The translations under genes were made by a program, and so were the position numbers. A model generated the notes under the pieces. The model worked only from the letters and a program-made list of their open reading frames with translations. It was not told the DNA's origin and made no database searches. From an uncultured Clostridia bacterium (GTDB lineage Bacteria; Bacillota; Clostridia; Christensenellales; JAWKQI01), in NCBI GenBank assembly GCA_964453645.1, contig CAYVRJ010000001.1, positions 106,301-138,300 of the forward strand: a DNA stretch of 32,000 nucleotides, in the 5' to 3' direction. This document shows, in pieces, positions 3,310 through 20,607 of the stretch; the first letter of the stretch is position 1, and the number at the start of each line of letters is the position of its first letter.

Positions 3310-3323
3310 GAAGAACAGGTTGG

Positions 3324-3340
3324 CGTGAAAGAGTTTCACG
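3324..3340 (+). other. Intercistronic perfect hairpin (7-bp stem CGTGAAA/TTTCACG, loop GAG), no T-tract
   Basis: Read directly from the sequence, in the 52-nt gap between the two TIM-barrel genes. It is followed by gctaatgg rather than a U-run, so it is not an intrinsic terminator. Confidence 0.5.
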
Positions 3341-3361
3341 GCTAATGGAAGGGAGTTTTTT

Positions 3362-4276
3362 ATGATGAAATTAGGACTTGTTTCGGCAATACTGCCCGAC
3401 AACACCTTTGAAGAGGTCATAGATTTTGCTGCAAAGGTTGGATTTTCTTGCGTTGAAGTTTGCTGCTGGCCAAAAGGTAAGGCGGCGAGACGGTATGCGG
3501 GTATCACCCACATCGACTTGAGTGATCTGGATCAGGCTAAGATGGACTATTATTTAAACTATGCCAAGGAACGGGGAGTGGAGATCAGCTCTCTTGGGTA
3601 CTACCCCAACCCCCTAGACCCGGATACCGAGGCCAGAAGTACGGCCATTGATCACATTATGGCCCTCATCGATGCTTCGGCGCAAATGGGCATCAACATG
3701 ATCACCACCTTTATTGGCAAAGATAAAAACAAGACGGTGGATGAAAATTTAGAGCTGTACAAAGAGATTTGGACGCCCATCGTAAAATACGCTGAATCAA
3801 AGAAGGTGCGCATCGGCATTGAAAACTGCCCCATGCTCTACACAGTCAACGAGTGGCCGGGTGGGGTGAACCTTGCCAGCACACCCTATGTTTGGAAGAA
3901 GATGTTTGAGCTGATTCCAAGCGACTATCTGGGCTTAAACTACGATCCCTCCCACCCCTATTTGATTCAGATGGATTATATTCAGCCCGTCTACGACTTT
4001 AAGGATAAGATATTCCACGTCCACTTTAAGGACATTAAGATTTTTAAGGACAAACTCAACGAGTACGGCATCTATGCATATCCCACCCTGTGGCACTCTC
4101 CCAAATTACCCGGCATGGGGGGCGTGGACTTTGGTGCGTTCTGCTCGGCGCTCAACGACATCCGCTACAGCGGCCCCGCCTGCATCGAGGTGGAGGACAG
4201 AGCGTTTGAGGGTTGTTTAGACGACGTCAAGCGGGGTATCGAACAGAGCTACCGCTTCATGAAACAATACGTATGA
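3362..4276 (+). CDS. Sugar phosphate isomerase/epimerase (xylose isomerase-like TIM barrel), second paralog
   Basis: 304 aa. SD gaagggag upstream. Motifs IGIENCP, NYDPSH, HVHFKD and CIEVED fit the same TIM-barrel family (IolE/IolI-like architecture). Confidence 0.8.
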   Translation: MMKLGLVSAILPDNTFEEVIDFAAKVGFSCVEVCCWPKGKAARRYAGITHIDLSDLDQAKMDYYLNYAKERGVEISSLGYYPNPLDPDTEARSTAIDHIMALIDASAQMGINMITTFIGKDKNKTVDENLELYKEIWTPIVKYAESKKVRIGIENCPMLYTVNEWPGGVNLASTPYVWKKMFELIPSDYLGLNYDPSHPYLIQMDYIQPVYDFKDKIFHVHFKDIKIFKDKLNEYGIYAYPTLWHSPKLPGMGGVDFGAFCSALNDIRYSGPACIEVEDRAFEGCLDDVKRGIEQSYRFMKQYV

Positions 4277-10500: not shown

Positions 10501-11682
10501 TTAGGGCTGATAGATTTCTATCGGCTCTTTCTTTTTGCGGTTCATCACTAAAAAGATGGTTCCTCCAATGAGAGCGGGAATGCCGGATATCATCAGCATG
10601 CTGTTGATACCCATGGTTTCGGATAAAAATCCAAACAGCGGGTTTCCCACCATCTGGGAGATGCTGAGTGTGGCTTGGTAGATGAGGGCAGCCCCCGATA
10701 GGAACTTTACGTCCACGTGTTTGGCAATATAATAAACCACGCCGGGCACGAAGAGGGCAAAGGAAATGGCTTGCAGTGCAACAAACACCCACACGAGAAA
10801 TACGTTGGATGCCAAAGAGAGCGCAATGGAGCGAATGAAATAACCCACCATGCCAAAACCCAGCAGTTTGGATACGCCAAATTTATTCTTGAGTTTGGTG
10901 AACCCCAGCATCACCCAAAACTCTGCAAAGGCCATGATGAAATAGGCAATACCCACTTCCGACTGATTTCCCCCCAGATGTTGAATCAGCAGGGGGGTGA
11001 AGGTGGCCATGGAGACAAAAGTTAAATAGGACAAAAAGGCTGTGACTAAAAGGAGCACATATTTTTTGTTGCCAAAGAGATAGGATGCCGACTTGCGGAT
11101 GGTGATGTGCGTGGCATTTTCGTGCACTTGGGGGTTGGGGATTTTAAGAATCACGGTGAGGATGGTGAGGAACACCAAGATCATTGCATAAATCGCCAAG
11201 TGATTTCCAAAAGACGAAAACAACTGGCCCAGTACAATGGCAAAAACAGCGTATGTTAAAGAACCAATGCTGCGCACCCGGCCGTAGTCTAGCTTCACCT
11301 TTTGCTTTTGCAGCTTAGTGATCCAGGAATCGATAATACCCGTGAGAGACTGGGTGGTACCCAAAACAACCACCGAAAAACCCACAATAAAGGCGGGAGC
11401 TTCATAGAAGAAAAAGAGCAGGGGCAGCCCCGCAGTGCCCACCAGCAGCACAATGGCGATCATTTGTTTGATTTTGTTGAACTTATCCGACAAATATCCA
11501 AAGACCGGCTGACAGATAAAACAACTGATGGCTGTCCACATTAAGGCGATGCCAATGCTAAAATCCGAATATCCGAAACTCTTTAAAAATACCGTATAAT
11601 ATCCGCAAAAAATGAGTATCACAGTAAAATATCCGCCCATGAGGACGGAAAATCTGCTCGTCAATCCCTTTACTTCTTTCAA
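10501..11682 (-). CDS. MFS transporter (12-TM, LacY/oligosaccharide- or nucleoside-H+ symporter-like)
   Basis: 393 aa, hydrophobic throughout, with GYLSDKF after TM2 as in sugar/nucleoside MFS symporters. TTG start at 11682 with SD GAGGAG 6 nt upstream. Confidence 0.8.
   Translation of the reverse strand: MKEVKGLTSRFSVLMGGYFTVILIFCGYYTVFLKSFGYSDFSIGIALMWTAISCFICQPVFGYLSDKFNKIKQMIAIVLLVGTAGLPLLFFFYEAPAFIVGFSVVVLGTTQSLTGIIDSWITKLQKQKVKLDYGRVRSIGSLTYAVFAIVLGQLFSSFGNHLAIYAMILVFLTILTVILKIPNPQVHENATHITIRKSASYLFGNKKYVLLLVTAFLSYLTFVSMATFTPLLIQHLGGNQSEVGIAYFIMAFAEFWVMLGFTKLKNKFGVSKLLGFGMVGYFIRSIALSLASNVFLVWVFVALQAISFALFVPGVVYYIAKHVDVKFLSGAALIYQATLSISQMVGNPLFGFLSETMGINSMLMISGIPALIGGTIFLVMNRKKKEPIEIYQP
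10506..10536 (+). terminator. Putative intrinsic terminator of the 14-10485 operon, embedded in the 3' end of the convergent MFS gene
   Basis: GCTGATAG-ATTT-CTATCGGC (8 bp with one G.U pair) followed by TCTTTCTTTTT. Begins 21 nt after the pfkB-like stop. Confidence 0.55.
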
Positions 11683-11711
11683 TGGCCTCTCCTCTTCTAG
11701 TAACTGACAAC

Positions 11712-11740
11712 ACTATACCACACAACACGTCTTGTTTCAA
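11712..11740 (-). promoter_or_regulatory. Sigma-A-type promoter for the MFS gene
   Basis: On the minus strand: TTGAAA, 17 nt, then extended -10 TGGTATAGT. Read directly from the sequence. Confidence 0.55.
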
Positions 11741-11784
11741 CTAAAAATATGTGCCGTAAAAAGGCATAAGAATCTTCAAATTAC

Positions 11785-11813
11785 TTGATAATTCGACAGT
11801 TCAACAGTATAAT
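11785..11813 (+). promoter_or_regulatory. Near-consensus sigma-A-type promoter for the radical SAM / GDP-sugar operon
   Basis: TTGATA (11785-11790), 17-nt spacer, TATAAT (11808-11813). About 37 nt upstream of ATG 11850. Confidence 0.65.
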
Positions 11814-11849
11814 ACAGGAATGGTTTATTAAAACAGAAGGGTTTCTGTG

Positions 11850-13757
11850 ATGAAAAATGTGTATTTAGCCCAGCCCAATTATCTCTATGGCAACAACGCT
11901 TACTTACCCTATTCGGCAGGAGCTATTGCTGCCTATGCCTTTGACGATCCCCAAGTGGCAGCGCACTATGCCTTGCCCCCCATTCTTTTTTTGCGCAGAG
12001 ATATTGCAAAGGTTGTGGAAGAACTGGACAACCCATGTGTGTTTGGGTTTTCAAATTATGTCTGGAATTTCGAGTACAACTTGTTGCTTGCAAGGGCTGT
12101 GAAAGCTGCTTATCCCGATTGTCTCATCCTCTTTGGAGGGCATCACATTCAAACCAATTCGGTGGAACTATTAAAAGACCACCGTTTTATCGATATACTC
12201 ATCTACGACGAGGGAGAAAAACCCTTTAGAGACATACTCAAGGCACTCCTAAACGGACAAGGGTTTGAAGACATTACAAACATCGCATACCGCAAAGACG
12301 GGTTGATTGTTGCAAACCAACTGGAGCGCTGGGAGGATACGGACTATCCCTCCCCCTACCTCACCGGGGTTTTTGACAACATCATCAGCGATACAAACGT
12401 TCACTTCACGGCAACTTTAGAGACCAACCGGGGGTGCCCGTTCTCCTGTGCCTACTGCGATTGGGGCATTTATAAATCCAAACTCAGAGCCTTTCCCATG
12501 GAGCGGATTGCAGAGGAAATCCAGTGGTTTTCAAAGAACCGAATCGAACTGGTCATGGGTGCGGATTCCAACTTCGGCATTTTGGAGAGAGATGTAGACA
12601 TTGCCAAAATGTTGATTAAAGCCAAGAAAGAGACGGGGTATCCCCAAAAGTTTCGGGTGTCCTACACCAAAAACAGCAACAAAACGGTATATGCCATCAA
12701 TGAGGCCTTAAACAACTCAGGTATGAGCAAGGGAGCAACGCTGTCCTTCCAAAGCTTAAGTGAAAGGGTGCTTCAAAATATCAACCGTAAGAACATGGAT
12801 ATGGGTATGTTTTCAGAGCTGCTCAAGCTCTACAATGCAAACAATATTCCCACCTACTCGGAAATTATCATGGGATTGCCGGGGGAGACCTATGCATCTT
12901 TTGTGCAGGGCATTGATACCCTGTTGGAAAATGGCCAGCACAACTCCATTAATATTTATAACTGTGAACTGCTGCCCAATTCCCTCATGGCCTCAAAGGA
13001 ATATATGCAAACCCATGCGATACAAACCATAAGAACGCCCCTAAACCAATACCACTGCGAACCCCAATCGGGGGATATCACCGAGTATTCCAACGTGGTG
13101 GTGAGCAACAGCACGATGACCATGGACGATTGGGTATTGTGTAACGTCTTTTCTGTGGTGGTCCAGTGTTTCCACTGTTTGGGGCTGTTGCAGTACATCG
13201 CAGTATTTGCCCGGCACAGGTACGGCGTACCCTACCACAAGTTTTACAGCCAGTTGCTCTCCTTTTTACCCGGATGCACAGGCATTGGTCTTATTTTCAA
13301 TAAAATTGTGAACCAAATAAAGGGCATCTCCTCGGGAAGCACTTGGGAGTATACAAATCCAAAGTTTGGTAACATCACTTGGCCCTTGGACGAGGGTGCT
13401 TTTTTGGAGTGTATGTGTCTCATGGACAGTTTTTATGAGGAACTCACCCCCTTCTTTGAGACGATGATACCCAATCGTGAGGAATTGCAGGAACTGATTC
13501 GCTATCAAAAGGCCTTGGTTAAGAAACCCTTTGATCGGGACTTCCGCTTGACGTGTGTTTACGACTTTAAGGATTATTTCGAAAAGGTGTATCTGGGGTC
13601 TGAAGTTGAACTTCAAAAAAAGTTGTGCACTTATGAAGTTTGTGTGGGAAAGACATACCACTCCTTTGCGTTATACGCAGTGGAAGTGGTGTGGTACGGC
13701 CGCAAGGGTGGAACGAATATATATCAAACAAATTATTTGCATGAAGGCCTTGCGTAA
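11850..13757 (+). CDS. B12-binding-domain radical SAM protein (class B-like), substrate unknown
   Basis: CPFSCAYC = CxxxCxxC at nt 12435-12458. The N-terminal ~170 aa have the flavodoxin-like pattern of cobalamin-binding rSAM enzymes (VFGFSNYVWNF, LILFGGHH). Followed by a long C-terminal region of about 400 aa. SD agaaggg. Confidence 0.8.
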   Translation: MKNVYLAQPNYLYGNNAYLPYSAGAIAAYAFDDPQVAAHYALPPILFLRRDIAKVVEELDNPCVFGFSNYVWNFEYNLLLARAVKAAYPDCLILFGGHHIQTNSVELLKDHRFIDILIYDEGEKPFRDILKALLNGQGFEDITNIAYRKDGLIVANQLERWEDTDYPSPYLTGVFDNIISDTNVHFTATLETNRGCPFSCAYCDWGIYKSKLRAFPMERIAEEIQWFSKNRIELVMGADSNFGILERDVDIAKMLIKAKKETGYPQKFRVSYTKNSNKTVYAINEALNNSGMSKGATLSFQSLSERVLQNINRKNMDMGMFSELLKLYNANNIPTYSEIIMGLPGETYASFVQGIDTLLENGQHNSINIYNCELLPNSLMASKEYMQTHAIQTIRTPLNQYHCEPQSGDITEYSNVVVSNSTMTMDDWVLCNVFSVVVQCFHCLGLLQYIAVFARHRYGVPYHKFYSQLLSFLPGCTGIGLIFNKIVNQIKGISSGSTWEYTNPKFGNITWPLDEGAFLECMCLMDSFYEELTPFFETMIPNREELQELIRYQKALVKKPFDRDFRLTCVYDFKDYFEKVYLGSEVELQKKLCTYEVCVGKTYHSFALYAVEVVWYGRKGGTNIYQTNYLHEGLA

Positions 13758-13766
13758 AGATTGAAA

Positions 13767-13810
13767 ACGATTTGTGCCGTATGTGAAACGGCGGAATGGA
13801 GTTTATTTTG
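13767..13810 (+). promoter_or_regulatory. Conserved leader element, copy A (upstream of gmd)
   Basis: 33/38 identical (37/44 through the start codon) to 18357-18400, in exactly the same register relative to the start codon. Contains hairpin GCCGT-N7-ACGGC and the SD GGAG. Confidence 0.7.
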
Positions 13811-14815
13811 AAAAAAGCACTGATTACAGGCATCACCGGGCAAGACGGTTCATATCTTGCCGAACTGTTGCTGAAAAAAAACTATGAGGTCCACGGCATT
13901 GTGAGGAGAGCCAGTGTGTTTAACACCGAGCGAATCGATCACATCTTAAAGGACATTCAGACGTACCACGGGGATCTCACCGATTCCTCCAACCTAAACC
14001 GCCTCATGGAAAAGATTGAGCCCGACGAAATTTATAACCTTGCGGCTCAGTCCCACGTGAAGGTGAGTTTTGAGGTGCCCGAGTACACCGCCGAGGTAGA
14101 CGCTGTGGGCACCCTAAAAATGCTGGACACATTGTCTGAACTGCGAACCCACACCCGGTTTTATCAAGCCTCCACCTCCGAATTGTTCGGTGGGTTTCCC
14201 GAAACGGCACCCCAGAGCGAAACAACCCCTTTCACTCCCCGCTCTCCCTATGCTGCCGCAAAACTCTATGCCTATTGGGTCACCGTGAATTTTCGCGAGG
14301 CCTATAATCTCTATGCCTGCAACGGCATATTGTTTAACCACGAATCTCCCCGCAGAGGCAAGACGTTTGTGACAAAAAAGATCACCATGGCGGTGGCCGA
14401 CATCGTTAGGGGCAAGCAGGAAAAGCTCACCCTGGGCAACATGGATGCAAAGCGGGACTGGGGTTATGCCAAGGACTACGTATACGCCATGTGGCTCATG
14501 TTACAACAGGAAAAACCCGACGACTACGTGATTGCAACGGGGGAAACCCACTCTGTGCGAGAGTTTGTGGAAGCTGCCTTTCGTTATGTGGACATCACCA
14601 TTGAGTGGCAGGGCAGCGGTGTGCATGAAGTGGGCAGAGATGCTAAGACGGGAAAGATTTTAGTGGACATAAACCCAAAATATTTTCGGCCAACCGAGGT
14701 GGACTGCCTGCTGGGCGATGCCACAAAAGCAAAGGAACAGTTGGGTTTTGTGCCCAAAACCTCCTTTGAAGAACTGGTGCACATCATGATGGAGTACGAC
14801 CTTCATGAGAGATGA
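13808..14815 (+). CDS. gmd: GDP-mannose 4,6-dehydratase
   Basis: [43 protein letters not shown] and [13 protein letters not shown] are canonical Gmd motifs. TTG 13808 gives the usual MKKALITG N-terminus, with GGAG 6 nt upstream. In-frame ATG 13796 is the alternative. Confidence 0.93.
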
Positions 14816-15740
14816 AAAAATTTATTTGGCGGGGCACACCGGCTTGGTGGGAAGCGCCATATTTAAGGCCCTTAAGGACAGGGGATATACAAATATTCTC
14901 ACCGCTTCCCACAGGGAGCTGGATTTAACCAGGCAGGCGGACACAGAGGCTTTTTTCGAGCGGGAAAAGCCAACATACGTCATATTAGCTGCTGCAAAGG
15001 TGGGGGGCATTGGGGCGAATATGCAGAGTATGGCCGACTTTGGTTATATCAACGCCATGATCGGGGCAAACGTCATACACAGCGCCTACGCATACGGAGT
15101 AAAAAAACTCTTGTATTTGGGCAGTTCGTGTATATATCCAAGGCAGTGCCCCCAGCCCATGCGGGAGGACTGCCTCCTAACGGGTATTCCCGAACCCACC
15201 AACGAAGCCTATGCCCTCTCCAAAATATTGGGGCTTAAGCTTTGCGAGTACTACAACACCCAGTACAACTGCAACTTTATCAGTGCCATGCCCTGCAACA
15301 TATACGGTGAGGGGGACAATTTCGACGAAAAGACGTCCCACGTCATCCCTGCCCTCATGCAAAAGATGCACAACGCCCATGTTCGGGGGGAGGATAGCGT
15401 TCTCATTTGGGGCACGGGCAGAGCTAGACGGGAGTTTTTACACGTCTTTGACTTGGCTTTGGCCTGTATCTTTCTGCTGGAAAACTACGATGACAAACAG
15501 TTTGTCAACGTGGGTGCTGGGCATGACGTGACCATTGCCCAGTTGGCAGATATGATGCGCCAGGTGGTGGGCTTTCGGGGGGAAATCGTCTTCGATACCT
15601 CCAAACCCGACGGCATGATGAAAAAGTGTGTGGATACGTCTAAAATCAATGGCCTGGGGTGGAAGAGTGAGATCGATCTTATGAATGGCCTTAAGCAGAC
15701 GTACGCTTGGTTTTTAGAAAATATTGTGAGGTATACATGA
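14805..15740 (+). CDS. fcl: GDP-L-fucose synthase family epimerase/reductase (Fcl, or its paralog GDP-L-colitose synthase ColC)
   Basis: About 45% identity by eye to E. coli Fcl: [43 protein letters not shown]. Overlaps gmd by 11 nt and colD by ATGA. Confidence 0.88.
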
Positions 15741-16888
15741 AAAAATATCCGTTGGCGTCGGGGACGTGGGGACAAGAGGAACGGGAAGCAATCCTTCGGG
15801 TGATGGACAGGGACATGTTCACCATGGGTCAAGAAGTGTTAGAGTGCGAACAGGCCTTTGCTAAACAGTTTGGTGCAAACTATGCGGTCATGTGTAATTC
15901 GGGTTCGTCTGCAAATTTGTTGGCAGTGGGAGCTATGGTCTATTCGGGCAGATGGCAGCGGGGAGACGAAATCATCGTTCCCGCAATTGCATGGGCAACG
16001 ACGTACTATCCCCTCTATCAATACGGGCTGAAGCTTCGGTTTGTGGATATCGACAGGGAAACCCTGAACATCAGCATCCCCGCCTTAAAAGAGGCGATCA
16101 CCCCCAACACCAAGGGGCTGGTTGCAGTGAATCTCCTTGGCAACCCCAACGAGTTCAATGATATTGAACGTATTTGCAGGGATGGGGGGATCACCTACTT
16201 CGAGGACAACTGCGAGAGTATGGGTGCCAAATACAAGGGCAAATATGCGGGAACCTTTGGGCTTATGGGCACGTACAGCTCCTTTTTCTCCCACCACATC
16301 TCCACCATGGAGGGTGGGTTTATCACAACCGACGATGAACTACTCTACGACATGCTCAAGTGCCTGCGGGCACACGGCTGGACGAGGAATTTAAATAGTG
16401 ACAGCGTGTTGTTTGAGAAGGGGGATGAATTTTACGAACTGTTTCACTTTATCCTTCCGGGTTACAACTTTCGCCCCATGGAGATGCAAGGGGCCATCGG
16501 GAAAGAACAGCTCAAGCGTTTGGAAGGGTTTGTAACCCTGCGGCGGCAAAACGCACTGTATTTTAAAGAGAAGTTTAGGGACTTACCCCTCACCGTGCAA
16601 CAAGAGACGGGGGAAAGCTCCTATTTTGGACTGGCATTTCTTTTAAACAAACCCGGCAAACGCAATGCACTGGCAAAAAAGCTAATGGACAGCGGCATTG
16701 AGTGCAGGCCGGTGATGACGGGTAATTTCACCAAAAATCCCGTGATTCAATATATGGAGTTTAATATTTCGGGCACCCTGGACAATGCGGATTATGTCCA
16801 TGAAAACGGCATATTCCTTGGCAACCACAGCTACGACTTAAGGCAACACATCGACTATGCCTACGACGTAATTTGCGGAGAACTGTGA
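15737..16888 (+). CDS. colD: GDP-4-keto-6-deoxy-D-mannose 3-dehydratase (ColD-type, DegT/AAT-fold)
   Basis: Colinear with E. coli O55 ColD as I recall it (YPLAS-TW, MFTMG, FEDNCESMGA, RAHGWTRN, LPGYN-RP-EM, QQETGESS-FG, IECRP). The PLP-lysine position is His (SFFSHHISTMEGG, His187, nt 16295-16297). Confidence 0.82.
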   Translation: MKKYPLASGTWGQEEREAILRVMDRDMFTMGQEVLECEQAFAKQFGANYAVMCNSGSSANLLAVGAMVYSGRWQRGDEIIVPAIAWATTYYPLYQYGLKLRFVDIDRETLNISIPALKEAITPNTKGLVAVNLLGNPNEFNDIERICRDGGITYFEDNCESMGAKYKGKYAGTFGLMGTYSSFFSHHISTMEGGFITTDDELLYDMLKCLRAHGWTRNLNSDSVLFEKGDEFYELFHFILPGYNFRPMEMQGAIGKEQLKRLEGFVTLRRQNALYFKEKFRDLPLTVQQETGESSYFGLAFLLNKPGKRNALAKKLMDSGIECRPVMTGNFTKNPVIQYMEFNISGTLDNADYVHENGIFLGNHSYDLRQHIDYAYDVICGEL

Positions 16889-16891
16889 AGA

Positions 16892-18337
16892 ATGGATTAT
16901 AATATGAGCAGTTTTGTATTTGGCACCGGTGGGATCCGGGAAGTGATGGGGCAAGGCGAAGGGAAGATGAACGACGATGTGATTATTTTGGCATCTCTGG
17001 CGCTTGCCCGGTTTCTCTTTGAAAAGTTTGAGAACCCCAAAGTTTTGGTGGCCTACGACAGCAGAATCAATTCCAAGGAGTGGGCGAACCTCACGGCAAA
17101 GGTGTTGGTCTCCAAGGGGGTTGAGGCCTTTGTTTTTGATCGGCTGTGCCCCACCCCGGTGCTCAGCTTTGCTATTTTACATCTGAATTTATCGGCAGGG
17201 GTGGTGATCACCGCCAGCCACAACACAAAGGAATACAACGGTTATAAGGTGTACGGGCACACCGGGGTGCAGTGCGTGCCCCAAGAGACCAAACAAATAA
17301 CAAAACACGGCCAGCAGTGTAGCGTCTTTGATTATGTTGAGCCAGAGGCAGACATTCAAACGGTTGGGGAGGACGTGCTGCGTGCCTTTTATGATGCCGT
17401 GCTCTGTGAATCTGTCTTTGAAGAAACTGCAACTGCAAGTGAACTAAACGTTGTGTTCACCCCCCTCCACGGAACGGGTGGCCTGCCCGTTCTCACAGTG
17501 CTTAGAGAAGCGGGATTTCGTGATGTGTTGGTGGTGGAAGAACAGTTTGAACCCGATGGCAATTTCCCCACCGTGGATTCCCCCAACCCCGAGGAACCCT
17601 CCGCTCTAAAAATGGCCATTGACTTGGCGAATCAGACGGGTGCGGATATAGTCATTGGCACAGACCCGGATTGCGACAGGGTGGGGGTTGCGGTGCGCCA
17701 CATGGGTAAGTACGTGCAGCTCAGCGGCAACGAGGCAGGGGCACTGCTCACCGGGTATCTCCTTTTCAAAAAGAGCGGCAACACCTTGGTGAAAACAGTT
17801 GTGTCGGGAGAGCTGGGCGGGCAAATTGCCCGGCAAAACGGACTAAACGTAATCAATACTCCCACTGGGTTTAAATACATCGGCGAACAGATGGAAAGCT
17901 TAGGCGAAGACTTCTTTTTTGCCTACGAGGAGAGCTTTGGTTATTTGGGCGGGCGTTATGCCCGGGACAAATGCGGGGTGGGCGCATGTCTGCTCCTGTG
18001 CCAATGTGCGGCACACCATAAACAACGGGGAAAAACCTTAGTGGATGCCCTAAACGAACTCAAAGCAACCTATGGCCACTACCAAGACTTTGGCCAGAGT
18101 ATACGGCTTGACCCCGGTCAACAGGAGAAAGTGATTGAACGGTTAAAAAGCTTGGATGGAATTTTGGAGGTGGAGGAGGCAGGTAGTTTCTTAAAACTGC
18201 ACTTTCACAACGGATGGATTGCCGTTCGGCCTTCGGGTACCGAACCAAAACTCAAGCTGTATTACAGCGCCAAGGGAGAGAGCCATGAAGCGGCTCAAGT
18301 AGCACTGGATGAACTAAAGAAAAGAGTAGGGGCTTAA
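16892..18337 (+). CDS. manB: Phosphomannomutase/phosphoglucomutase (alpha-D-phosphohexomutase)
   Basis: Active-site loop VVITASHNTKEYNGYKVY (Ser at nt 17216-17218; the usual Pro after SHN is Thr). Metal loop GTDPDCDR, sugar loop AYEESFGY, phosphate loop RPSGTEPKLK. The symbol is assigned from operon context. Confidence 0.8.
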   Translation: MDYNMSSFVFGTGGIREVMGQGEGKMNDDVIILASLALARFLFEKFENPKVLVAYDSRINSKEWANLTAKVLVSKGVEAFVFDRLCPTPVLSFAILHLNLSAGVVITASHNTKEYNGYKVYGHTGVQCVPQETKQITKHGQQCSVFDYVEPEADIQTVGEDVLRAFYDAVLCESVFEETATASELNVVFTPLHGTGGLPVLTVLREAGFRDVLVVEEQFEPDGNFPTVDSPNPEEPSALKMAIDLANQTGADIVIGTDPDCDRVGVAVRHMGKYVQLSGNEAGALLTGYLLFKKSGNTLVKTVVSGELGGQIARQNGLNVINTPTGFKYIGEQMESLGEDFFFAYEESFGYLGGRYARDKCGVGACLLLCQCAAHHKQRGKTLVDALNELKATYGHYQDFGQSIRLDPGQQEKVIERLKSLDGILEVEEAGSFLKLHFHNGWIAVRPSGTEPKLKLYYSAKGESHEAAQVALDELKKRVGA

Positions 18338-18356
18338 CGTGAGAGATTTTTTACGG

Positions 18357-18400
18357 ACGATTTGTGACGTAAGCCAGACGGCGGAATGGAGTTTTTTATG
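18357..18400 (+). promoter_or_regulatory. Conserved leader element, copy B (upstream of manC)
   Basis: Same element as 13767-13810, offset by exactly 4590 nt: ACGATTTGTGaCGTA-N6-ACGGCGGAATGGAGTTT, then 3 nt and the ATG. Confidence 0.7.
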
Positions 18401-19732
18401 AACATAGTATTATTATCGGGGGGGTCGGGCAAGCGGCTGTGGCCTTTGTCCAACGAAACTCGCTCCAAACAGTTTCTTAAATTATTGAGCACAGACAGTG
18501 GGGAAAAGCAGTCCATGATTCAACGGGTGTTTTCCCAGATCAAAGAGGCAGGCCTTGATAAAAGCCTCACGGTGACCACCAGCAGCACCCAGGAGAGTGC
18601 CATCGTTGGCCAAATCGGGGACAGTGCCAACATCGTCATCGAGCCGGAGAGGCGGGACACTTTTCCCGCAATCGCACTGGCGTGTTGTTATTTAAAGTTT
18701 AACAAATGCTTGTCCGACGACGAAGTGGTGATCGTTATGCCCGTGGATCCCTATGTGGACATCGATTATTTTCATAAGTTCCAAGAATTAAAGGACGGTG
18801 TAAACACCAATCAGTACGACATTGTGCTCATGGGTGTGACACCCACCTACCCTTCGGAGAAGTATGGATACATTCAGCCAAAGGCGGGGGGAAGTTTGCG
18901 GGAAGTGGATAGATTCAAAGAAAAACCCACCGTAGCCCAGGCCGAAGAGTTAATTGCTGGGGGTGCACTGTGGAACTGTGGGGTGTTTGCCTTTAAGCTT
19001 GGTTATATGATGAACGTCCTTGCAAAGTATATGGATGTCTCGTCCTATGAAGAGGTGTATGAAAACTATCACCTGCTCAACAAAAACAGTATGGACTACG
19101 AAGTGGTGGAAAAGGCGAAGCGGATTGGCCTCATAACCTACGACGGCAGATGGATGGACATGGGCACGTGGAACACCTTAGCCGAAGAGATGGGTGCAAA
19201 CACCATCGGCAGGGTCACTTTATCCCAAAACTCTAAGAACACCCACGTGATCAACGAGCTGAGCATTCCCGTGGTGGTCATCGGTGCTAAGGATATGATC
19301 GTTGCTGCAAACTACGACGGCATTCTGGTGAGCGACAAGGAGCAGAGTTCCTATTTGAAAGAGTATTTGAGCGATGTAAACAATCGCCCCATGTTTGAGG
19401 AGAGAGCGTGGGGCAGATATAAGGTGTTGGAGCTGTTTTCTTTGGGAAACGGCAACAAATCCTTAACAAAACATTTGTTTGTCAAACAGGGTAAGAAGCT
19501 GAGTTATCAAATGCACAGGCTGAGGCAAGAAATTTGGACGATTATTTCGGGCACAGGTATTTTCACCATGGACGGAATGAACAGTTCGGTGAAGGCGGGA
19601 GACGTGTTCACCATTGACATCGGCAAAAAACACACCATTCAAGCGCTCACAGACTTGGAATTGATCGAAGTGCAACTGGGTAAAGAGTTAGAGGAAAATG
19701 ATATCATTCGCTTTGAGGAGGAATCGATTTGA
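18398..19732 (+). CDS. manC: Mannose-1-phosphate guanylyltransferase with C-terminal cupin domain
   Basis: MNIVLLSGGSGKRLWPLS (GGxGxRLWPLS). C-terminal cupin (LSYQMHRLRQEIWTIISGTG). ATG 18398 has GGAG 6 nt upstream. In-frame ATG 18386 is the alternative. Confidence 0.9.
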   Translation: MNIVLLSGGSGKRLWPLSNETRSKQFLKLLSTDSGEKQSMIQRVFSQIKEAGLDKSLTVTTSSTQESAIVGQIGDSANIVIEPERRDTFPAIALACCYLKFNKCLSDDEVVIVMPVDPYVDIDYFHKFQELKDGVNTNQYDIVLMGVTPTYPSEKYGYIQPKAGGSLREVDRFKEKPTVAQAEELIAGGALWNCGVFAFKLGYMMNVLAKYMDVSSYEEVYENYHLLNKNSMDYEVVEKAKRIGLITYDGRWMDMGTWNTLAEEMGANTIGRVTLSQNSKNTHVINELSIPVVVIGAKDMIVAANYDGILVSDKEQSSYLKEYLSDVNNRPMFEERAWGRYKVLELFSLGNGNKSLTKHLFVKQGKKLSYQMHRLRQEIWTIISGTGIFTMDGMNSSVKAGDVFTIDIGKKHTIQALTDLELIEVQLGKELEENDIIRFEEESI

Positions 19733-20607
19733 AAGTAGTATTGATGGACGGCGGGCTGGGCAACCAAATGTTTCAATATATATTTGCACGGTTTGTGGAA
19801 CTGTATTCGGGCGAACCCGTTTTTATCGACGATGCATTCTTTTTCTACGCAGACTTACACAACGGGTATGAAGTGGAAAAGGTGTTTCCCAACGCAAAAC
19901 CAAGGCTGCTCAGCAAAGAGTTTAGCCCCGGAACGTGGGATCAAATTGTGCAGTATGTAAAGAACGAGGCAGCGTTTCCCGAATTTATGAACAACGGTGG
20001 CAACAATTTCTTTGTTGTTTTTGAAAGTGGCGACATTCGTTATACTGGTAATATGGTGAAAGTGCCAGCCAACCAGTTTACCCCCGATATCGCCATCACC
20101 CAGGGTAATGTCTATTACTTTGGCTATTGGATCAACAAGAGGTGGTTGTCAAGTATTGCAGATTCAATAATGAGGGAGTTGGAGTTTCCGCCCATCCCCG
20201 GTGCACACAACCAAGACTATACAAGGTTGATTGAGAAAACCAATTCCGTTGCAGTACACATCCGCAGGGGAGATTTTGTGGATATAAAGTGGACGTTAGA
20301 GGACTCCTTTTATTTTAACTCCATAAAGGAAATCGCCCATAGGGTGGACAATCCAACATTTTTCATCTTTTCGGACGATCTCAACTGGTGCAGGGAAAAC
20401 AGCGAAGGATTGGGTTTTGAATTTGCAAAGGGAAATCTGGTGTATGTGGAGGGTAACATGGACAAACAAAACAACTATGTGGACATGCAGCTCATGTCTA
20501 TGTGCAAGCACATGGTCATCGCCAACAGTTCCTTTAGTTATTTGGCAGCCCTGCTCAACAGAAATGAAAACAAACTCATTGCCAATCCCACAGCACGGGA
20601 GCTTTAA
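19729..20607 (+). CDS. Glycosyltransferase family 11 (alpha-1,2-fucosyltransferase-like; possible colitosyltransferase)
   Basis: GGLGNQMFQY, HIRRGDF, FIFSDD and ANSSFSYLAALL are the GT11 motifs. TTG start overlaps the manC stop (TTGA), with SD GAGGAGG 7 nt upstream. Confidence 0.88.
   Translation: MKVVLMDGGLGNQMFQYIFARFVELYSGEPVFIDDAFFFYADLHNGYEVEKVFPNAKPRLLSKEFSPGTWDQIVQYVKNEAAFPEFMNNGGNNFFVVFESGDIRYTGNMVKVPANQFTPDIAITQGNVYYFGYWINKRWLSSIADSIMRELEFPPIPGAHNQDYTRLIEKTNSVAVHIRRGDFVDIKWTLEDSFYFNSIKEIAHRVDNPTFFIFSDDLNWCRENSEGLGFEFAKGNLVYVEGNMDKQNNYVDMQLMSMCKHMVIANSSFSYLAALLNRNENKLIANPTAREL

Follow-up and report, generated by a model that had tools for sequence, protein, structure and literature searches.

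Among the short bacterial repeats described to date, MIRUs come closest to the sequences reported here. As summarized from Supply et al. (1997) in a 2025 review (PMC12548453) and in PMC3184786, MIRUs insert at start codons and carry an internal ORF that is coupled to the gene at a -4 spacing (PMC12548453). They measure 40 to 100 bp, number approximately 40 to 50 copies, are known from filled and empty sites, and contain ORFs that overlap the flanking genes; direct repeats of 4 nt have been reported to flank filled sites (PMC3184786). Synthetic translation-initiation cassettes of the bicistronic design (BCD; reference 78 as cited in PMC12548453) place a first Shine-Dalgarno sequence (SD1) before a short leader cistron that contains a second (SD2), and the stop codon of the leader overlaps the start codon of the gene. 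Repeats in Neisseria (REP2/CREN) and Borrelia (IR-A/IR-B) lie just upstream of ORFs and supply ribosome-binding sites and stem-loops (PMC3184786), and REP/BIME sequences are short GC-rich palindromes, multiple copies of which populate transcribed intergenic DNA and may be arranged in tandem.

In this study, we analyzed a 32,000-nt stretch of DNA (the window) from the genome of an uncultured, spore-forming member of the Clostridia (2.28 Mb in 19 contigs, 92% complete, 46.5% GC), in which two similar sequences precede the genes gmd and manC. Both are copies of a lineage-specific, 59-nt dispersed repeat that is located directly 5' of start codons, where it is likely to restore a complete translation-initiation region. 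By analogy, the element is a MIRU-like and BCD-like start-codon repeat in Firmicutes, and a new, lineage-restricted variant. As with MIRUs, the repeats are short, dispersed, intergenic and co-oriented with genes, are present in tens of copies, form tandem arrays, and have filled and empty sites (three junctions, in a comparison across genera). They likewise contain a small ORF that overlaps the downstream start codon (-4), often with an upstream stop codon abutting, and both copies in the window are arranged in this way. The likeness is one of architecture, and membership in one sequence family is neither claimed nor expected. The host belongs to the Clostridia and has 46% GC, whereas MIRU hosts are high-GC Actinobacteria; the clostridial unit has a canonical extended SD and, 5' of this SD, a GC hairpin that outlives the ORF; and about half of its sites are 5' leaders, not operon junctions. 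Furthermore, no flanking 4-nt direct repeats of the kind reported for MIRUs could be demonstrated.

The succession of SD1, SD2-containing leader cistron and overlapping stop codon is shared with BCD cassettes, and by analogy initiation would be expected to be independent of local mRNA structure. However, the clostridial element is natural, repeated and lineage specific, and has a conserved hairpin. With REP2/CREN and IR-A/IR-B it shares the position just upstream of ORFs and the supply of a ribosome-binding site and stem-loop. In contrast to the clostridial units, of which the two in the window showed no promoter-like site in a consensus scan and whose start codon is the gene's own, REP2 measures 120 to 150 bp and, like the Borrelia IR sequences, has its own promoter and ATG, and a coupled mini-ORF is not described for it in PMC3184786. 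REPs are mostly located 3' of genes, in either orientation and without an SD or ORF, whereas the copies described here are strictly co-oriented. A search for the Y1/RAYT transposase (PF01797) associated with REP found no such gene in this 92%-complete genome, while positive controls were matched.

According to Pfam, the operon in the window encodes a B12/radical-SAM protein, GMD, an epimerase/reductase, a DegT aminotransferase, ManB, ManC and a GT11 glycosyltransferase. The first-pass annotation of the window had named gmd and manC and described a leader element duplicated in front of them, and both observations were borne out. The gene products match GDP_Man_Dehyd (2.6e-147; 13808-14815) and NTP_transferase plus MannoseP_isomer (18398-19732), respectively. 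Both start codons are well placed, given that GMD and ManC are matched by their Pfam domains from residues 4-5 onwards (residue 5 in GMD). Positions 13767-13804 and 18357-18394 are identical at 33 of 38 nt (5 mismatches) and, when extended to the start codons, at 37 of 44 nt (7 differences), at an offset of 4590. A repeat search returned the direct repeat 13767-13817/18357-18407 (82% identity over 51 nt, spacing 4590) as the longest in the window. The distance from GGAG to the start codon is indeed 6 nt for both TTG 13808 and ATG 18398, and the two copies occupy the sole two long intergenic gaps of the GDP-sugar operon. The hairpin arms that had been proposed are present as GCCGT/ACGGC in the gmd copy and, with one A.G mismatch, as GACGT/ACGGC in the manC copy. 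No named riboswitch or leader had been recognized, in agreement with the absence of Rfam 15 matches at the gathering score across the window; at E values of up to 10, just two chance-level matches were obtained in positions 11500-20000, and these lay elsewhere. A promoter sequence, TTGATA-17-TATAAT (11/12 of the consensus), was observed at 11785-11813, ahead of the radical-SAM gene, and is consistent with a single transcription unit that runs through both repeat copies.

The similarity of the two sequences runs further 5' than had been described, as is apparent from the covariance model alignments (Table 1). What the first-pass annotation missed is the 5' half of the unit, together with a mini-ORF whose stop codon overlaps the start codon of the gene. 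Unit A, before gmd, has 54 nt and is thus approximately 5 nt short of the 59-nt consensus, and the TAA stop codon of the upstream B12/radical-SAM gene (13755-13757) lies inside its 5' end. The mini-ORF of unit A starts 3 nt past this stop codon, and its TGA overlaps the gmd TTG at 13808 (TTGA). Hairpin A consists of a core stem (13775-13780 paired with 13788-13793) with a 7-nt loop, followed by a G.G mismatch and two outer U-A pairs, and folds at -7.6 kcal/mol, compared with -3.5 for shuffles. At unit B, the TAA stop codon of manB (18335-18337) ends 1 nt before the GTG of the unit, an SD-like AGGGG is located at 18328-18332, and the TGA of the mini-ORF overlaps the manC ATG at 18398 (ATGA). 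Hairpin B is in register with hairpin A but differs from it in the loop and contains one A.G mismatch (18367/18381), which weakens it. In the possible third copy, the 5' part and the SD, spacer and ATGA are kept, and the hairpin is lost.

Table 1. Repeat-related features in the window (positions are those of the window)
Feature	Position	Strand	Basis
Repeat unit A, before gmd	13754..13807	+	Covariance model match 13739-13813 (R1), 70.1 bits, E 6.8e-13; nhmmer match (C1:120061)
Mini-ORF A, TTG to TGA, 16 codons	13761..13811	+	Translation, ORF geometry
Hairpin A	13772..13796	+	RNA folds, pair counts
SD GGAG (13798-13801), 6-nt U-rich spacer, gmd TTG (13808-13810)	13798..13810	+	Sequence
Repeat unit B, before manC, full 59 nt	18339..18397	+	Covariance model match 18324-18403 (R1), 76 bits, E 3.4e-14
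Mini-ORF B, GTG to TGA, 20 codons	18339..18401	+	Translation, geometry
Hairpin B	18362..18386	+	Fold, covariance model alignment (non-standard pair marked)
SD GGAG (18388-18391), 6-nt U spacer, manC ATG (18398-18400)	18388..18400	+	Sequence
Possible third, decayed copy, before ORF 3362-4276	3310..3367	+	Covariance model (R1) unfiltered, 20.9 bits, E 0.046, marginal; repeat search

Across the genome, 66 copies of the repeat were detected with an iterated nhmmer profile, and 63 with a covariance model built from 40 of the nhmmer copies. The exact sequence pattern of the two window copies matched the genome 4 times and its reversed control 0 times, and the 3' core of 14 nt, searched at a tolerance of 2 mismatches, gave 70 matches compared with 7 in the reversed control. 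As these counts exceed those of the reversed controls, the similarity of the two stretches is not due to chance. The consensus unit of 59 nt is composed of a start codon (mostly GTG), AAAGATTCTTTAATGACTATTTGT, the hairpin GCCGT-AAGTGAA-ACGGC, GGAATGGAG and a U-rich spacer, and every copy has the orientation of the ORF downstream of it. A start codon follows GGAG within 3-14 nt in every copy, at a distance of 6 nt in 41 of 63 and of 5 nt in 12 of 63, whereas ordinary GGAG-type ribosome-binding sites of the same genome show a broad spread of 4-12 nt. A consensus scan detected no sigma-70-like site inside 13739-13813 or 18324-18403. The first-pass annotation had raised the question of whether the motif occurs at random genomic positions. 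There are indeed many further copies, but their positions are not random, since they are always ribosome-binding sites. One copy (C9:85394-85472) has kept the hairpin, has lost GGAG, and has no start codon directly after it; it may be a dead copy, and is the only one seen away from a ribosome-binding site.

ORFs of at least 60 codons follow 55 of the copies, and each of the remaining copies is followed by a further unit of its tandem array. At approximately 24 loci, which are operon junctions, the upstream ORF terminates at the 5' part of the unit or within it; the other loci are 5' leaders. Pfam assignments of the served genes revealed no common functional theme. Metabolic functions include an Fe-alcohol dehydrogenase, a phosphoglycerate-mutase-like protein, phosphoglycerate kinase (pgk), L-arabinose isomerase (araA), aspartate carbamoyltransferase (pyrB), pyrC and a 2-oxoacid dehydrogenase E2, in addition to GMD and ManC. 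Redox, radical and other proteins are represented by a nitroreductase, a PFL-like glycyl-radical enzyme, radical-SAM proteins, a URO-D-like protein, an Fe-hydrogenase and a GNAT acetyltransferase, and envelope-related proteins by an M15 peptidase, a beta-lactamase-like protein and VanW. Lipoprotein genes are also served. Genes for regulation and DNA functions encode a SpoIIAA-like STAS protein, a histidine kinase, SSB (ssb) and RecF (recF). Four copies are located in a pyrimidine operon (C14:10470-15524): one before the aspartate carbamoyltransferase gene, two before an ORF whose orthologue in a related genome (G001, described below) is a dihydroorotase-like amidohydrolase, and a decayed one before a 192-codon ORF that is a putative pyrE by its N-terminus alone.

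Seven tandem arrays were found, in which 2-3 units follow each other head to tail with a 59-nt period, and the SD of each unit serves the start codon of the next. At C7:119757-119953, a 335-codon ORF is separated from a 2-oxoacid dehydrogenase E2 gene by three units that are 92% alike; the other six arrays are located at C1:41611-41794, C2:332177-332320, C5:166293-166431, C9:32769-32903, C11:33191-33329 and C14:14419-14557. Neighbors within an array are 83% identical on average, compared with 75% family-wide, and have private substitutions in common. This higher identity and the shared private substitutions indicate that arrays grow locally, as VNTR loci do, and local duplication would account for their origin. 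The seven arrays are probably loci of the VNTR type that would be suited to strain typing.

The consensus is open in a single frame, which runs from the start codon of the unit through the hairpin and SD, and an SD-like purine run is located 7-12 nt upstream of this start codon. Since the unit length of 59 nt equals 3x20-1, the mini-ORF meets the start codon of the gene and stops at NTGA (-4 overlap). A bridging mini-ORF was present in 49 of the 63 copies and absent from 14. The exact NTGA overlap was found in 31 of 63 copies, compared with 11.6% of 1747 background genes (p = 2e-13). Among copies in the coupling register, the base at +4 was A in 31 of 38 (background 47%, p = 2e-5), and among out-of-register copies in 9 of 17 (Fisher p = 0.047). 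This bias points to selection for the overlapping stop codon rather than mere target preference.

Differences from the consensus were distributed over codon positions 1-3 as 187:234:194, and the synonymous fraction was 0.177, below the positional-shuffle null of 0.217. Under a null that assumes equal conservation across sites, 26.9 stop-creating changes were expected in the mini-ORF frame and 6 were observed; outside the SD, there were 4 such changes compared with 12.5 expected (p = 0.005). No depletion of such changes was detected in frame 1, and in frame 2 it was weaker (10 compared with 17.1 expected outside the SD, p = 0.03). These substitution patterns indicate that the peptide of the mini-ORF is neither conserved nor selected, and the frame itself looks protected. 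The first start codon has been lost in at least 7 copies (GTG to GTA). Given these copies and the 14 of 63 without a bridging ORF, a relay of ribosomes through the mini-ORF would be dispensable at many sites. In the copy that precedes a cupin gene (C16:799-877), the loop is one base shorter and the spacer one U longer; its nucleotides are kept, while the mini-ORF frame is shifted and encodes a different peptide, and the end is still TTATGA.

As RNAalifold predicted no consensus structure for the whole 91-column alignment, the hairpin was tested by hand-named stem pairs and per-copy folds. Standard pairs made up 93.7% of cells for the named pairs, compared with 42-72% for a slid partner. In eight cells both sides had changed, a number that none of 500 shuffles attained, and a change of the closing pair from U-A to C-G co-occurs in 14 copies (Fisher p = 8e-4). 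One stem position has 14 uncompensated A.C cells. The covariation of the stem is modest and may in part be a subfamily effect. The 3' half of the unit (hairpin plus SD) is the best conserved and the sole part left in truncated copies. The copies in the most advanced state of decay lack the 5' half and are altered in loop sequence and length, yet retain a GC stem of 5-8 bp that ends two bases before GGAAUGGAG and folds at -6 to -10 kcal/mol, compared with approximately -3 to -6 for shuffles. As the stem is kept after loss of the 5' half, the hairpin-plus-SD module is the lasting part of the unit.

The first-pass annotation had also suggested looking for the motif in related genomes. With the covariance model, 0 matches were obtained in 60 genomes from the same order, compared with 63 in the genome itself, and a pattern search of 40 of these 60 relatives did not find the repeat. 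Likewise, exact and degenerate patterns found nothing in two scans of representatives of 185,579 species, and there was no match in IMG/VR by pattern or in plasmids by blastn. In the JGI metagenomes, a first pattern had no match and a looser one had a single TARA match, which was judged to be due to chance because it has neither the hairpin arm nor a following start codon. The element was thus not found in the 60 relatives and the public collections searched; together with its occurrence elsewhere in the genome, both outcomes that the first-pass annotation had named as refuting its reading were observed. The lineage is very sparsely sampled. Among 5.8 billion proteins, the closest homologue of ManC (18398-19732) is 57% identical (from Sedimentibacter-like MAGs and others), and this GMD occurs on a single further contig (Logan SRR10912416), which is 100% identical.

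As that contig is identical, there is no same-species empty site, and no close relative provides orthologous gmd/manC leaders; the case for mobility rests on a comparison with another genus. The empty sites were identified by comparison with G001, the only genome of the same family, which belongs to another genus. In G001, pyrB overlaps pyrC, with an SD 7 nt before the ATG; in the genome studied here, the same SD region is followed by two units and the orthologous start codon. The rpsF/ssb spacer is 12 nt in G001 and 69 nt here, and dnaN and recF are separated by 1 nt from stop to start codon in G001 and by exactly 59 nt here. At all three junctions, the start codons are orthologous and the N-termini encoded to either side show conservation. 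These three empty sites indicate that the unit sits immediately 5' of a pre-existing start codon and that the old SD now serves the mini-ORF. The junction of the E2 acyltransferase gene was not usable as an empty site, as the gene is absent from G001. NTGA is present at both ends of most units, but the NTGAA at the 5' end does not vary with the 3' flank and is a constant part of the unit; a target-site duplication could therefore not be demonstrated. From these comparisons, solo copies would have arisen by transposition-like insertion. A bolder reading is that the repeat is an active, start-codon-targeting mobile element of Clostridia that has been taken over by its host, so that approximately 2.5% of the genes share a hairpin-SD module. 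We consider this doubtful. If true, these genes could be tuned jointly via a hairpin-binding factor, via RNA decay from the 5' side, or via the efficiency of termination and reinitiation.

The repeat is probably tolerated or even useful at start codons because it supplies a complete translation-initiation region. Each unit has its own start codon, served by the old SD, and a frame of approximately 19-20 codons with arbitrary coding content; this frame contains the 6-bp GC hairpin and the extended SD (GGAAUGGAG), followed by the 6-nt U-rich spacer. Ribosomes would arrive from the upstream gene or the upstream SD, translate the mini-ORF, unfold the hairpin, and end translation at the gene's start codon (NUGA), where they would reinitiate with the aid of the internal SD. 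This SD, predicted to be single-stranded just 3' of the hairpin, could also recruit ribosomes directly, and the hairpin could keep the SD exposed or protect the RNA. The translation of the mini-ORF, the reinitiation relay and the mobility of the repeat are inferred. The radical-SAM-to-gmd and manB-to-manC junctions would be two such relays, with nothing specific to GDP-sugars.

Alternatively, the element could be the operator of a regulon, in which a trans-acting protein or small RNA binds the hairpin, its loop or GGAAUGGAG and co-regulates approximately 55 genes. The retention of a hairpin beside the SD in old and otherwise decayed copies would fit such a role, as would the good conservation of the loop AAGUGAA in younger copies. 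However, loops vary freely in decayed copies, recent common descent alone predicts a high similarity of copies, the served genes lack a common theme, and the consensus scan detected no promoter in the two window units. There is precedent for repeat-borne ribosome-binding sites that form a regulon, namely, Neisseria REP2/CREN with 14 genes (PMC3184786). Overall, we regard a regulon as improbable. CsrA would be a candidate regulator, as the genome has a csrA gene and the SD region contains two GGA motifs, but these motifs lie 3' of the hairpin, with none in the loop, and csrA adjoins fliW. The csrA-fliW arrangement is tied to flagellin control in Firmicutes. A CsrA operator was judged unlikely because the GGA motifs are outside the loop and csrA is paired with fliW. 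The two genes are adjacent and overlapping in this genome (C1:314065-314750), with a DUF6470 gene ahead of them.

It is similarly improbable that the mini-ORF is incidental to a hairpin module, that is, a REP- or STAB-SD-type 5' stabilizer or an SD insulator that spread by recombination of ribosome-binding sites. As a stabilizer, it would shield the downstream cistron from 5'-to-3' decay after processing of the operon. The depletion of stop-creating changes in the mini-ORF frame argues against an incidental ORF, as do the 59-nt length, which gives the -4 register, and the enrichment of A at +4 in in-register copies only. The conservation of the 3' half, its survival as the sole remnant of truncated copies, and the 14 copies without a bridging ORF are all as expected of a hairpin module. 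Spread by recombination is in keeping with the lack of a detected transposase and with the resemblance of both unit ends to a generic SD-TTT-N3-NTG-AA junction, which would permit homology-driven copying. However, only 38 of 1075 ordinary ribosome-binding sites contain GGAGTTT, which leaves little homology for recombination.

The first-pass annotation proposed a shared cis-regulatory RNA or translational operator that would coordinate ManC with Gmd. To such a pathway-specific leader, or to a riboswitch responsive to a GDP-sugar, we assign a negligible probability. The proposal drew on the presence of two copies in one GDP-sugar operon, whose only two long gaps they fill, but more than 60 other copies precede unrelated genes. 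The coordination of ManC and Gmd does not hold, since the same element is found before approximately 55 functionally unrelated genes; the other two copies with the exact pattern precede genes for an NCS1 permease and a cupin protein. Furthermore, the gmd and manC copies are not a special pair. Their likeness is no greater than that of random copy pairs, and when the 65 neighbors of the gmd copy are ordered by similarity, the manC copy is in 30th place. Rfam gave no match even at E values of up to 10, the element was not found in the 60 relatives, and a hairpin of 6 bp would probably lack a ligand pocket. The GDP-sugar reading is thus refuted by the genome-wide distribution. The idea of a translational operator survives in part: the hairpin abuts the SD at a fixed distance from the start codon, which identifies a translation-initiation region, without the coordination of ManC and Gmd. 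Finally, a functional small peptide (consensus MKDSLMTICAVSETAEWSFL), acting as a regulatory nascent peptide or a radical-SAM precursor, was suggested by the open frame with an SD and start codon, its Cys and Trp codons, and the B12/radical-SAM gene directly upstream of the gmd copy, and is rejected as exceedingly unlikely on the substitution patterns, given that there is no third-position excess, that the synonymous fraction is under the neutral expectation, that the copy at C16:864 keeps its nucleotides with a shifted frame, and that the copies are scattered before unrelated genes.

The reading that we favor, of a start-codon repeat that rebuilds the translation-initiation region, corrects that of a GDP-sugar regulatory RNA. 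It also carries a warning for annotation, as approximately 50 small ORFs in this genome are repeat-borne and not genes, and it flags the repeat loci as likely to vary in copy number between strains. The number of copies is high enough to read selection from them, with the peptide free, the frame open, and the -4 register and hairpin kept. The MIRU-type design, which PMC12548453 and PMC3184786 describe only for mycobacteria, would thus have evolved also in Firmicutes, here with a classical SD. The repeat would be the equivalent in nature of the engineered bicistronic cassettes, and it could serve as an initiation cassette for Clostridia.
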